Source: Syntrophobacteraceae bacterium (GTDB lineage Bacteria; Desulfobacterota; Syntrophobacteria; Syntrophobacterales; Syntrophobacteraceae). Taken from it: DNA of 64,000 nucleotides. This document shows positions 6,001 through 9,456 of the stretch, one piece after another. The position numbers and the translations under genes are program-made. The number at the start of each line of letters is the position of its first letter. Positions within the stretch are counted from its first letter, which is position 1. The stretch spans positions 16,470 to 80,469 of the forward strand of contig PXBG01000120.1 of assembly GCA_003566995.1 (NCBI GenBank), in the 5' to 3' direction. Below the pieces are notes generated by a model. The model did not search any database. It was not told the DNA's origin and saw only the letters and a program-made list of their open reading frames with translations.

Positions 6001-7015
6001 GACTGAGGCGCAATCCTCCCGCGGCAATCAAACGGAGGTCTCCATGATCCGCCTTGACTGAAAAAGAGGTGGCAGGGCAGTCTTGCGCATCTGCTCCACC
6101 CATCAACGACAGCTCCAGAACGTTCGAAGTGATGATGGGATAATGGGAGCCGGCCACACTGTCCGCTGGTGCCCAGCTCAGGTGCCAGGATCCCGGCCCG
6201 ATGGTCAGGGTCGCTGGAACAGGGGATGGCCATTGCATCATGACAGGACCGCCAGCATGAATGGGTGCTGGAAGCCAGGAAGCCTGGGCAAGGATGCCCT
6301 GAGGATCCAGGGTTACAGTGAGGTCTTCGAGGCCATATGTCCCCCCGGCAGCCATCATTTCCCGCAAACGATCATCGAGAAAACCACCCAGTGCGGAGGC
6401 AAAATCCTTCGCCGTCAAGGGAGTTTCAATCCTCAACCCACGCAGCAGCTGGCTCAGGGCGTTGGCTGCAACATTCCACAAGTCGTCTAAATGCAAGACG
6501 TAGCGCGGCACGGCGAAGCGAAGCAGCTCGTTGTCCGCTCCATAAATTGCCGGCGACGTCTCAAAGCGGATGATGGACAACAGACGGCCGAGCTGAAACA
6601 GCAGGGATGCATGCCGGAACAGCCATCGCAGAACAAGATAGTCGCGCAGGTCTCTGCTGAACTCCCTGGCGACCTCGGGGGCGGCATTGGGCGACACCGT
6701 GGAGAACAGGGGTGTCTCAAGGATTTCCAGACGATCCAGCAGATTTCGAAGGGCGGCATGCGCTGCATCCGCTGCAGCGTTCTCATCGGGTTCCTCAGCG
6801 GCTGCCGCAATGGCATCCACATCCTTTTGAAGCTCGCCCAGGAGCGCCGTCAGGTTGTTCAGAGAACCATCCACAACGCCCTCGAGATTCCATCCCATCT
6901 GGGCGCAAAGTGCGTAGAAGGCGCGAGGCTTGTCCACCACATCCGTCAATGGCCTGAGAAAATCCTGTGTTTTTCCGAGAAGGTGTCGCAAGAATCGTCG
7001 ATGCTCCGGTGTCAT
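1..7015 (-). CDS. Giant protein of unknown function; N-terminal >=2338 codons, 3' end beyond the left window edge
   Basis: My reverse-complement translation from ATG at 7015-7013 (MTPEHRRFLRHLLGKTQDFLRPLTDVVDKPRAFYALCAQMGW...) stays open to position 2. All minus-strand track ORFs inside 1-7015 are in the other two frames. The track drops ORFs with no in-window stop. The start overlaps the stop of the upstream 814-aa gene (ATGA). Confidence 0.8.
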   Translation of the reverse strand, partial: MTPEHRRFLRHLLGKTQDFLRPLTDVVDKPRAFYALCAQMGWNLEGVVDGSLNNLTALLGELQKDVDAIAAAAEEPDENAAADAAHAALRNLLDRLEILETPLFSTVSPNAAPEVAREFSRDLRDYLVLRWLFRHASLLFQLGRLLSIIRFETSPAIYGADNELLRFAVPRYVLHLDDLWNVAANALSQLLRGLRIETPLTAKDFASALGGFLDDRLREMMAAGGTYGLEDLTVTLDPQGILAQASWLPAPIHAGGPVMMQWPSPVPATLTIGPGSWHLSWAPADSVAGSHYPIITSNVLELSLMGGADAQDCPATSFSVKADHGDLRLIAAGGLRLSLPETLLSTETGKLSGAVCGRVTHKLGGTPVITLDAATLQTESEVTLSGPAGLKIGAVEMTLAGVSFSADAGLGTSLDLKVAGTLLLGDSIIAVDARYDHDNGRFSILSTGEVYLGNGIWLFPADNEPVLELQAQGSGSATFGVNALFKVPRAGETDGTQTVAVSGSLSLRASQGQWLVESFSASGAISGQSLTLPGHITLTDAQVSLSLDTSRQIFKASLGGALTLGATAGEGSVSINVDLIFDDVTDPTSIRIDSALELDNVNLFHLAFLLHMRARLRVNTRRVNGGVTATGELMLEQAAAGFFPLDTIDPAQPHPDHFQLAVTQLTAQWNFHPAGFVLVATGGVLRLPPVFSPGPNDPSGLPLSISLSDENPLRLQVSTSGLQLEGEFVFANFGVRLDGGAISNGEGPALQVNEAKLRFHGKDLPVLHGVRGTASLPLPGAGHAHIGFQDMTFDMTGLPAGVIHLAQDLPGIPLGGGFTFTLLGGMGSDHPVTGLTVTHDDGAVRFRVDTAMRLSVPASMLLLEGGGQVAMKASGSMNYKVGDSFPEIAVHALTVSGSFQLGGLNGLLIDNGELSAEGISHMLKPAPANPFIIRLSGDVTLPDGPRGGLQNARFIFEGNPLPRFDLDGVSGGSGNLELAGGYLPVNVTNLRLQFDPTIELPQKFLPQHVTMVVDAEVNIQNVLTGSVRDLTIRFDANGMPQPAVDALMLQVTGLELVEGFSLGGGLAVGGLTQIPDALVLAGRLGGKVSGAGVEALVAFGVVDGLFMPLGAALEASMGPAGIPLGQTGFLLTGASGGVSFTGGNADPDDLRAYVQLDADGKVNSQPRPPAADAPDPAVQGPIAHAADPPTDAPLEFQCPQEPCPPPSVGILYQPHPDEEQYAHRVIFKFSALDQASVDRVLDAAGISKEALQGMTPDAVATQVGEAVIGSLGAMLPFTTEQLDLLRTPLQEAVAASATGALQGSGSVYDALVNAAYKGIRAPNTTLKLTGTLSYVGVSAFLSVTGGVVFSPTIQSAGIVGSINLVGIPMGTLRGFLTANNDAGAFDPALCGDLSFALGPLDLGKLRMTFRAGFDITTFAAHAIALSEELGQDLLAGVLQVMDDDLFNSHGRDPLATLAVLEPQQTLALVALLMQQPMRPDLRGFLVALFDRLWTNFNPQMLLCGSAQPKLLGLPLDGELVGVSANVTKTEFAASFRFSPMALFGKLFGGVLPAFDAMKLALRLVLPDPRPFIEAGIGGDLNSPAKMLQVAEEGLAHAMSEAVATIEYAIAPMGFRMVDAEARLIMPDLLNHPSHREIHWLRPEDRPGNLPSRLEVLLAAVLSDQLGNIFWRGTAEELKALPGLRNGAAIGNLSLREDYFPHGGILGAGRIALPQLFTQPPPVAEFNQLLTGGLMDKVHAAQTLLEGLTTAETLGQMGFYMPAPNPPAGAFAEVHTPRDLVALMQGYPFDLDSVDRGEFYSVQESFFRGSLGSPHRPVTILGIPVGSADLEVVPPETGREGFLRARARVPRGSWLRDLVGEAALEFSIRQCPPEPIETHFGRIASALSNPDADVHAIAMQLAGDLNSHLPKISLVAAVQDLRLPPELRNVLQLEGNVSAELHAYSLLYAYDPAFSSDDPLAAARNFGGLVLRIWNLTFGAGPFKGKIHEALFALTFKDPERMQLPRMSADMHVGRGAAPGLALNSARLVLGTDPLAAQLIGEVEFIDLGSFRIEPLAGRRSLHIRVDAVSGSLRIDPARLTVPALGGGSSVRIHGKTVDAPFTFDLSGSWEAGLSIVNLALNNPFDASGTPLFTLPGTVRVNLRGKGLASAEFELDFRHGSTVTILPGITLDGRAQGRLVMRSDGSFAYTGQHGLTLPQFTSSGILDVRHTPPQRRQPAVASVRLTGARVQLSGLPAFTADFEILPSQLRAVVNFGSGWMGISGLGEFRAGLWDFTYSWKGGPVTLTAKNALAVRILGNLIAEVQKLSLSMEPARNQMKMSAWTKGWVPLLPSLLEVQP

Positions 7016-9456: not shown

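Follow-up and report, generated by a model that had tools for sequence, protein, structure and literature searches.

A leaderless PhoD-like enzyme gene coupled to the gene of a giant protein: a candidate enzyme-carrier pair in a Syntrophobacteraceae bacterium

Introduction

To our knowledge, every characterized PhoD is a phosphate scavenger or a phospholipase that is exported by the twin-arginine translocation (Tat) pathway. A Tat signal consists of the motif S/T-R-R-x-F-L-K, followed by a hydrophobic h-region and a cleavage site. Enzymes of the PhoD type and of the HKD type both include phospholipases D (PLDs), and HKD PLDs serve as effectors of the type VI secretion system (T6SS). Here, we analyzed a PhoD-like gene located on the reverse strand of a 64,000-nucleotide (nt) stretch, hereafter the window, from the genome of a Syntrophobacteraceae bacterium (GenBank assembly GCA_003566995.1, contig PXBG01000120.1). 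It encodes a protein of 814 amino acids (aa) without an export signal and overlaps the start of a gene for a giant protein of 2719 aa.

The enzyme is comparable with PhoD of Bacillus subtilis (PDB 2YEQ; PF09423) and with the PhoD-type PLDs of Streptomyces chromofuscus and S. avermitilis, with which it shares the motif order SC, GDxxY, DDHE-x2-(N/D)(N/D), and GDxH. In common with the B. subtilis subfamily, it apparently has the Cys-type Fe ligand, and an N-terminal beta-sandwich precedes its catalytic domain. In contrast to PhoD, with a length of about 520-580 aa, the enzyme comprises 814 aa, lacks the Tat signal, separates motifs II and III by about 155 instead of 58 aa, adds a C-terminal domain of ~215 aa, and is encoded as the first half of what we consider an enzyme-carrier pair.

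On the level of the whole locus, the PhoD-led DUF6603 cassette can be compared. Its genes encode, in this order, the enzyme, a DUF6603 protein (B; ~1150 aa), another protein with a length of ~900-1100 aa, and then larger proteins. Its enzymes belong to the same PhoD-like subfamily, giant- and cassette-linked ones being intermixed in one well-supported clade, and both arrangements share a 4-nt coupling as well as an N-domain of ~230 aa opening the next protein. In the window, however, one giant of 2719 aa takes the place of three or four downstream proteins, and no relation between its core and the cassette proteins B, C, and D was detected. By analogy only, the pair also resembles Tc (ABC) toxin complexes and the effector-adaptor pairs of polymorphic toxins and the T6SS in having a very large leaderless carrier, an exchangeable payload with a cognate adaptor, and a patchy horizontal spread; an SpvB-domain gene and an FG-GAP protein occur in some PhoD-like neighborhoods. 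In contrast to these systems, the giant matches TcA, TcB, TcC, Rhs, VgrG, and PAAR neither in sequence nor in fold, the payload is a separate protein instead of a C-terminal tip, and the genome is devoid of a T6SS or phage sheath. A literature search for DUF6603, DUF7800, PF20248, and PhoD-like proteins in connection with polymorphic toxins retrieved nothing. The enzyme-carrier system has not been described before, while the enzyme itself is a divergent form of the known PhoD type.

A PhoD-like enzyme with conserved putative metal ligands and no leader

The PhoD-superfamily gene occupies positions 7012-9456 of the window (reverse strand), starts with GTG, and was defined by the open reading frame (ORF) call, the PF09423 match, an AlphaFold2 (AF2) model, and an alignment of 60 sequences. 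PF09423 (PhoD) is the sole significant Pfam family of the 814-aa protein, scoring 41.5 bits against a cut-off of 27 over 57 residues (aa 331-388 versus profile positions 72-128). After in silico removal of two large insertions, this match extends collinearly to profile positions 75-296 at 50.1 bits, and the fragment aa 545-625 alone matches positions 253-297. In a six-frame search of the genome with PF09423, the same frame scored 44.6 bits. A weak match to DUF7800 was found at the N-terminus in Pfam, and NCBIfam, PADLOC, and PHROGs yielded zero matches to the enzyme. Profile searches could have placed the protein in another metallophosphatase family, yet only PhoD was significant. We thus file it, by sequence, as a probable divergent subfamily of the PhoD superfamily.

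A homologue search covering 5.8 billion proteins revealed at least 2710 relatives of the enzyme. The best 120 are mostly 600-1100 aa long, nearly all annotated as hypothetical, and distributed over Myxococcota, Actinomycetota, Nitrospirota, Chloroflexota, Acidobacteriota, Gemmatimonadota, and other phyla; a few are DUF2272 fusions of up to about 1350 aa. DUF2272 (PF10030) is carried by the family members P0092, P0098, P0110, P0116, and P0117, all of about 1300 aa. In cassettes of Micromonospora, Actinomadura, and Humibacillus (L062, L064, L070, L082, and L083), the PhoD-like ORF measures 1400-1500 aa, with about 650 additional C-terminal residues.

Residue conservation was evaluated in an alignment of 60 sequences, the homologues being 35-54% identical to the 814-aa protein. 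The four PhoD-type motifs recognized in the initial annotation were all located and occur in the order given there, each of them on the reverse strand. Motif I, GSCRKPHGGGHD (aa 151-162; 8971-9006), has S152, C153, R154, and D162 invariant, and motif II, GDQVYVDD (aa 188-195; 8872-8895), has G188, D189, Q190, Y192, and D194 invariant. Motif III, FDDHEVTDDW (aa 351-360; 8377-8406), carries the Pfam match and shows invariance at D352-D353-H354 and D358-D359-W360. Within motif IV, SGDVHYAF (aa 563-570; 7747-7770), the first four residues (S563, G564, D565, and V566) do not vary, and H567 is conserved to at least 90%.

In B. subtilis PhoD, the essential metal ligands are Cys-180, Asp-207, Asp-265, Asp-266, Asn-271, Asn-272, and Asp-436; a tyrosinate is bound to Fe3+, and Asn-272 can be replaced by Asp (PMC4223295). 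Mapped onto the motifs, C153 would be the equivalent of the Fe3+ ligand Cys-180, D189 that of Asp-207, and Y192 that of the tyrosinate Fe ligand. D352/D353 would correspond to Asp-265/266 (CaA) and D358/D359 to Asn-271/272 (CaB), a position at which Asp is a known substitute. D565 appears equivalent to Asp-436, and H567 is likely a His ligand. All nine putative PhoD ligands are thereby present, eight of them invariant and the ninth, H567, at least 90% conserved in the 60 homologues. The mapping is backed by the profile alignment for motifs III and IV, and by pattern and order only for motifs I and II.

The AF2 model of the enzyme is of high confidence (predicted local distance difference test, pLDDT, 92.3; predicted template modeling score, pTM, 0.93). 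It consists of an N-terminal beta-sandwich, a beta-alpha metallophosphoesterase core, helical insertions at about 266-345 and 364-412, and a C-terminal alpha/beta domain at about 600-800. Each motif follows a strand, and the order of strands and motifs is compatible with a metallophosphoesterase sandwich. In a Foldseek search of the PDB, only Ig-like and adhesin-repeat domains matched the first domain (E about 2e-3). Thus, the comparison with PhoD by structure prediction that the initial annotation had called for resulted in a confident model, and Foldseek does not retrieve PhoD with it. The stretch of about 230 aa behind the last motif, then left unassigned, measures 244 aa and indeed matches no family; it is confidently folded and conserved rather than disordered. 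It contains a C-terminal alpha/beta domain of ~215 aa (7015-7659, reverse strand; pLDDT mostly above 85, strands 756-800), which is without family assignment and kept across the subfamily. W706, Y708, V752, G753, W779, T795, and P804 are near-invariant in this domain in the 60 sequences.

The N-terminal beta-sandwich (aa 13-113; 9118-9420, reverse strand) comprises the strands E13-23 to E111-113 at a pLDDT of 90-98 and includes the conserved strand LPLILSGPMLRR, which could be mistaken for a twin-arginine motif. The two arginines at aa 20-21 lie within strand E13-23 (pLDDT about 98), and the motif LPL(I/V)LxGPxLRR was found in 86 of the 86 family members whose loci are compared below, linked and free-standing alike. 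As this family-wide motif forms the first strand of the sandwich, the arginine pair is a structural element and not a Tat motif. From stop to stop, the frame comprises 852 aa and contains no ATG, GTG, or TTG ahead of the chosen GTG. Consequently, a hidden N-terminal extension is impossible, and the short N-terminus is no artefact of start calling. The absence of a Tat or Sec leader, already remarked upon from the sequence, is in this way confirmed by a hydropathy scan, by the structural role of the arginine pair, and by the lack of an earlier start.

Coupling of the enzyme gene to the giant gene and its recurrence in relatives

The stop codon of the PhoD-like gene and the start codon of the giant gene share an ATGA overlap at positions 7012-7015 (reverse strand), as the initial annotation had read it, and this overlap recurs in relatives. 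A GGAGG at 7023-7027, inside the PhoD-like gene, is positioned 7 nt ahead of the ATG of the giant, and another at 9461-9465 precedes the GTG of the PhoD-like gene at a distance of 4 nt. The proposal that the PhoD-like gene opens an operon with the giant gene can be specified to a two-gene operon, since the next gene downstream of the giant belongs to a convergent resistance-nodulation-division (RND) efflux operon.

The neighborhoods of homologues from metagenomes or genomes with 38-53% identity showed a large downstream gene overlapping by 4 nt in six out of six cases. This gene encodes either a giant of 2574-2674 aa (36% identical to that of the window) or a DUF6603 (PF20248) protein of 1148-1227 aa, behind which more large proteins are encoded. 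We extended the comparison to 86 family loci, namely 80 from a scan of one genome per species, the locus of the window, and five of the six earlier neighborhoods. Ten of these are giant-linked, so that a giant ORF is indeed found behind homologues as well, and one more (L001) is probably giant-linked, the contig edge ending the ORF. Twenty are linked to a DUF6603 cassette, 34 stand alone (nearly all of them from Cyanobacteria, three from Chloroflexota), eight have a small downstream ORF, and 13 are undecidable. Giant- and cassette-linked loci together (30/86) span seven or more phyla. Of 25 linked genome loci, at least 11 show an ATGA or GTGA overlap and three others overlap by 1 or 8 nt; the remainder have mostly spacers of up to 16 nt. 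Given the 34 homologues standing alone, the coupling characterizes only part of the family.

In a FastTree phylogeny of the enzymes, which mixes phyla, the enzyme of the window is placed in a well-supported clade of 14 members from five named phyla, together with nine giant-linked (one of them L001) and four cassette-linked enzymes. The stand-alone cyanobacterial enzymes form separate clades. Among the cyanobacterial loci classified as stand-alone, L017, L035, and L039 (Iningainema, Calothrix) have the PhoD-like gene coupled to an ORF of 370-485 aa without N-domain, by a 4-nt overlap in L017 and L039 and across an 8-nt gap in L035. At the closest metagenomic relative (L001:1011-5590, 53% identity), the PhoD-like gene is immediately preceded by two ORFs, one of 162 aa with an SpvB domain and one of 1364 aa. 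The Corallococcus cassette (L004) ends with an FG-GAP protein of more than 1850 aa.

Within its own genome, the module is single-copy, and the PhoD-like gene is the sole PF09423 match. A homologue was detected in only one of 40 related genomes and in none of three from the same genus; this one is a stand-alone copy with 34% identity. Canonical PhoD genes, sought in the same 40 genomes, were found in none of them. The guanine-cytosine content of the module is 60.2%, compared with 55.3% for the genome. The module thus appears to be accessory and horizontally spread.

The giant protein, its N-domain and its core

The giant gene covers positions 2-7015 of the window (reverse strand) with the first 2338 of its 2719 codons and extends 1145 nt beyond the window start (contig C146:15325-23484). 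No other ORF in the 3.04-Mb assembly is as long. Neither Pfam (searched with four overlapping pieces at E <= 10), NCBIfam, PADLOC, nor PHROG assigned the giant to a family.

The N-domain of the giant, aa 1 to about 230 (6326-7015, reverse strand), is adaptor-like and was delimited by BLASTP and by two hidden Markov models (HMMs), one of the B proteins and one of the N-domain itself. By BLASTP, aa 1-190 match a Nitrospira DUF6603 (B) protein (E 3e-13). An HMM of eleven cassette B proteins matches aa 6-230 (E 2.9e-18) as well as the N-termini of eight other giants. The likeness of the window's giant to the cassette DUF6603 protein is limited to these first ~230 aa, and DUF6603 proper begins at about aa 452 in the B proteins. 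In 28 of the 30 linked loci, the N-domain HMM matches the gene that immediately follows the PhoD-like one, and within 10 kb it has no match in the 34 stand-alone loci, the eight with a small ORF, and 12 of the 13 undecidable ones. Among the long members of the giant-core family, 28 bear the N-domain, and in the retrieved loci (nine and the window's own) all such giants are encoded directly behind a PhoD-like gene.

Four leaderless giants of the core family without the N-domain were looked up, and each is encoded behind a different, tightly coupled protein. At L092:5468-18128 and L093, the partner is an HKD phospholipase D of 846 aa (8-nt overlap) preceding a giant of 3375 aa; at L095:2418-14606, it is a PLDc_2 protein of 493 aa preceding a giant of 3564 aa. 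Both giants have the same core and a different N-terminus. The core-family giant at L094:5497-17936 is coupled to an 833-aa partner without Pfam family, and the one at L096:2950-15992 to partners of 654 and 1028 aa, likewise without Pfam family, with Lipase_3 and radical-SAM genes convergent downstream. The N-terminus is thus exchanged along with the enzyme, which is most simply read as docking of the enzyme by the N-domain.

A further arrangement was observed in [Phormidium] sp. LEGE 05292 (L031:3061-14977), where the gene behind the PhoD-like one encodes a giant of at least 3120 aa whose first ~390 aa match a cassette B protein (E 8e-58). Having neither DUF6603 nor the giant core, this protein would be a third carrier type.

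The giants of Acidobacteriota, Myxococcota, Bacteroidota, and Pseudomonadota align with that of the window mainly over aa 880-1980. This conserved core of ~1100 aa (1076-4378, reverse strand) was defined by conservation, profile search, and AF2. Its profile, compared with 1.84 billion representative proteins, retrieved 271 clusters, 186 of them at E <= 1e-30, with lengths of 2.2-7.6 thousand aa (kaa). The AF2 model of the core, of moderate confidence (pLDDT 77, pTM 0.60), shows long antiparallel beta-meanders and helical bundles. Conservation across the family concerns mainly Gly and Pro, an FPxGG motif, and a small number of polar residues (H1215, K1228, D1555, R1622, and H1631). H1215 and K1228 are conserved to 97% and 94%, respectively, across the wider core family. 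The segment aa 1198-1229 (window about 3329-3424, reverse strand), immediately preceded by a disordered, Pro-rich linker, is highly conserved and has the pattern CPxxPCPPP...QPHPD...R.I.KF.

Of the 119 long proteins in the core family, about 40, mostly of 3.4-7.6 kaa, have Sec-like hydrophobic N-termini according to a crude hydropathy test. One of them, P0170, contains TSP3_bac, Big_7, Big_13, and Laminin_G_3 domains. The PhoD-linked giant of L010 carries a CarboxypepD_reg domain, and that of L016 has a beta/gamma-crystallin match under the Pfam cut-off (24 versus 25 bits). Together, the Sec-like leaders and the adhesion-type domains in relatives point to a core that works outside the cytoplasm. 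The Sec-type core members examined are without a coupled enzyme.

Two other relations of the giant were considered and rejected. For LptD, the best Foldseek E-value with the core was 1e-5 at a TM-score of 0.10-0.15 and a root-mean-square deviation of about 35 A, which we read as a generic likeness of beta-meanders. A fusion of the cassette proteins B, C, and D was rejected at the sensitivity of HMMER and hhalign, save for the N-domain and weak traces of DUF6603, the last protein of the cassette being outside this comparison. These traces are collinear hhalign matches to DUF6603 at aa 980-1155 (E 0.002, probability 14%) and aa 1535-1575 (E 0.31); PF20248 (DUF6603) itself does not match the giant even at E <= 10. 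A search of the BFVD with the core model gave no viral match.

Interpretation and alternative explanations

The explanation we favor, with a confidence about midway between doubt and acceptance, is an enzyme-carrier module, in which a leaderless PhoD-type enzyme is docked by the adaptor of the giant and the giant acts at or beyond the cell surface on a phosphodiester target. The enzyme is predicted to be a catalytically competent phosphodiesterase or phosphomonoesterase of the Fe3+/Ca2+ type, and enzyme and giant would be made in fixed register. The first ~230 aa of the giant would be a PhoD-specific adaptor, most likely binding the enzyme, and the remainder, consisting of a beta-rich region, the ~1100-aa core, and a variable C-terminal third, would be the carrier. 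This carrier may present or deliver the phosphodiesterase to a phospholipid, a teichoic-acid-like polymer, or a nucleic acid. Its presumed location at or beyond the cell surface follows from core relatives with Sec-like leaders, one scanned member having extracellular adhesion-type domains. The suggested payload chemistry, cleavage of phosphodiesters or phospholipids, follows from the HKD phospholipase D that fills the enzyme slot in sister operons. Enzyme-adaptor binding, the extracellular site, the substrate, and a toxin-like or competitive role are what we infer from this pattern.

Several observations weigh against this explanation. On the side of the enzyme, Foldseek of the model against the PDB gave nothing at E <= 1e-3, with PhoD and purple acid phosphatases absent from the 50 matches listed, and PDB chains searched with the protein (phmmer), the 60-sequence profile, and the catalytic segment provided no sequence match; for this reason, motifs I and II had to be placed by pattern and not by alignment. 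Moreover, with 34 of the 86 family members standing alone, the enzyme can work without a carrier. On the side of export, the hydropathy scan detected neither a transmembrane (TM)-like nor an h-region segment in the enzyme, and in the giant no leader or TM helix apart from one marginal, Asp-containing internal stretch. No secretion genes are kept beside the enzyme-giant pair, and a search of the genome (94% complete) for TssC and a phage-type sheath found neither. Taking the leaderless pair, the missing conserved secretion genes, and the missing TssC and sheath together, an extracellular role needs an unknown export route or lysis. With regard to the carrier, the core is without a recognizable fold (Foldseek against PDB and BFVD), and inspection of its alignment for a catalytic signature showed no known triad, with Cys only 43-90% conserved. 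Finally, the shared operon may also reflect a common pathway rather than binding between enzyme and adaptor.

Leaderless enzymes and giants are what an intracellular conflict or defense module would also lead one to expect, with the giant as cytoplasmic sensor or scaffold and the enzyme as abortive-infection effector degrading membrane phospholipid or nucleic acid. The patchy, horizontal-looking distribution, the exchangeable enzyme with a PLD in the slot, as known from many defense systems, and the CHAT/TPR, TIR-WD40, STAND-like ATPase, or Schlafen-AlbA neighbors at some loci fit as well. These conflict-type neighbors, however, vary between loci, and the giant has neither an NTPase nor a sensor domain. 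The enzyme, the upstream ORF, and the giant, searched as four overlapping pieces, had no match in PADLOC-DB 2.0 at E <= 0.1. In addition, the core also occurs in proteins with Sec-like leaders, one of which, when scanned, showed TSP3, Ig, and LamG domains. We hold a defense role to be unlikely. The adhesion-type domains in relatives would equally suit an adhesin or S-layer-like giant, for whose export or assembly on the own surface the enzyme clears a phosphodiester-linked envelope polymer, or which it processes or matures. Teichoic acid is considered a target of B. subtilis PhoD (PMC4223295). Phosphodiesterase chemistry occupies the slot in two of the four non-PhoD cases, and translational coupling is compatible with a fixed stoichiometry. 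Yet this enzyme is leaderless, two of the four alternative partners have no recognizable hydrolase domain, and no coupled enzyme accompanies the Sec-type core members examined; a helper function of this kind is in our judgment rather improbable.

Two further explanations are in our view very hard to sustain. An ordinary Pho-regulon PhoD scavenging phosphate next to an unrelated giant gene would explain the PhoD-family signature, and the direct repeat upstream of the gene could be the site of a response regulator. The period of this repeat, 16-17 nt, is at odds with Pho boxes, which have an 11-nt period. Furthermore, the protein has no Tat or Sec signal, the gene is the only PhoD-family match of the genome and missing from 39 of 40 relatives, and the coupling together with a matching adaptor domain is kept across phyla; we give this reading hardly any credence. 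Just as hard to credit is a pseudo-enzyme that kept the fold as a structural subunit and lost catalysis. The great divergence from characterized PhoD, the large insertions, and the extra domains might suggest it; all the putative metal ligands, however, are invariant or nearly so in 60 sequences of 35-54% identity, which is unexpected for a dead site.

Returning to the enzyme-carrier module, a broader version of it is conceivable, and we put it forward as a doubtful, tentative proposal. The pair could be the minimal two-gene form of an unrecognized class of self-contained enzyme-delivery or enzyme-display systems. In these, a leaderless giant with a novel fold would bind its phosphodiesterase, either PhoD or HKD-PLD, by means of an exchangeable N-terminal adaptor and carry it out of the cell to the membrane or envelope of a target, with no known secretion system involved. 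The adaptor would also connect the PhoD-type enzyme to the DUF6603 cassette, an unrelated set of carriers. If so, "enzyme + adaptor" would be a modular currency common to different machines. The data reveal a large, leaderless sister subfamily of PhoD, whose thousands of members are spread over at least ten bacterial phyla and are partly hard-wired to giants of unknown fold. The two-gene form described here has its carrier from a different, rarer family than that of the cassette, and this family also shows the enzyme swap and has Sec-type relatives. One adaptor of ~230 aa on two unrelated carrier architectures, combined with the joint replacement of enzyme and adaptor, provides a testable model of how giant ORFan proteins gain payloads. 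Should the pair prove to be a delivery system, a new route would be at hand by which an enzyme cleaving lipids or polymers leaves the cell; if not, it would still offer the first functional handle on the DUF7800/PhoD-like and giant-core families.

Flanking genes and upstream spacer

Just past the window start, between the stop codon of the giant and the RND operon, lies a His- and Lys-rich ORF of 353 aa (contig C146:14177-15238, reverse strand), which is probably spurious, its composition being non-protein-like. On the other side of the module, beyond the spacer, an ORF of 268 aa (9903-10709, reverse strand) shows weak zinc-ribbon matches (E about 0.01). It is probably unrelated to the module, as it is not kept beside it in relatives.

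The spacer upstream of the PhoD-like gene (9457-9902, reverse strand) measures 446 nt and contains a tandem repeat, in agreement with the initial annotation, as well as the Shine-Dalgarno sequence; it is presumed to be the promoter/operator region. Scans of 9457-9902 for Rfam families, a sigma-70 promoter, and a terminator gave zero matches. The tandem direct repeat consists of two copies with a length of 16/17 nt at 9547-9579, 91-123 nt 5' of the GTG, with the forward-strand consensus GGTGGCCCTATTTCTC, and may serve as an operator or activator site.

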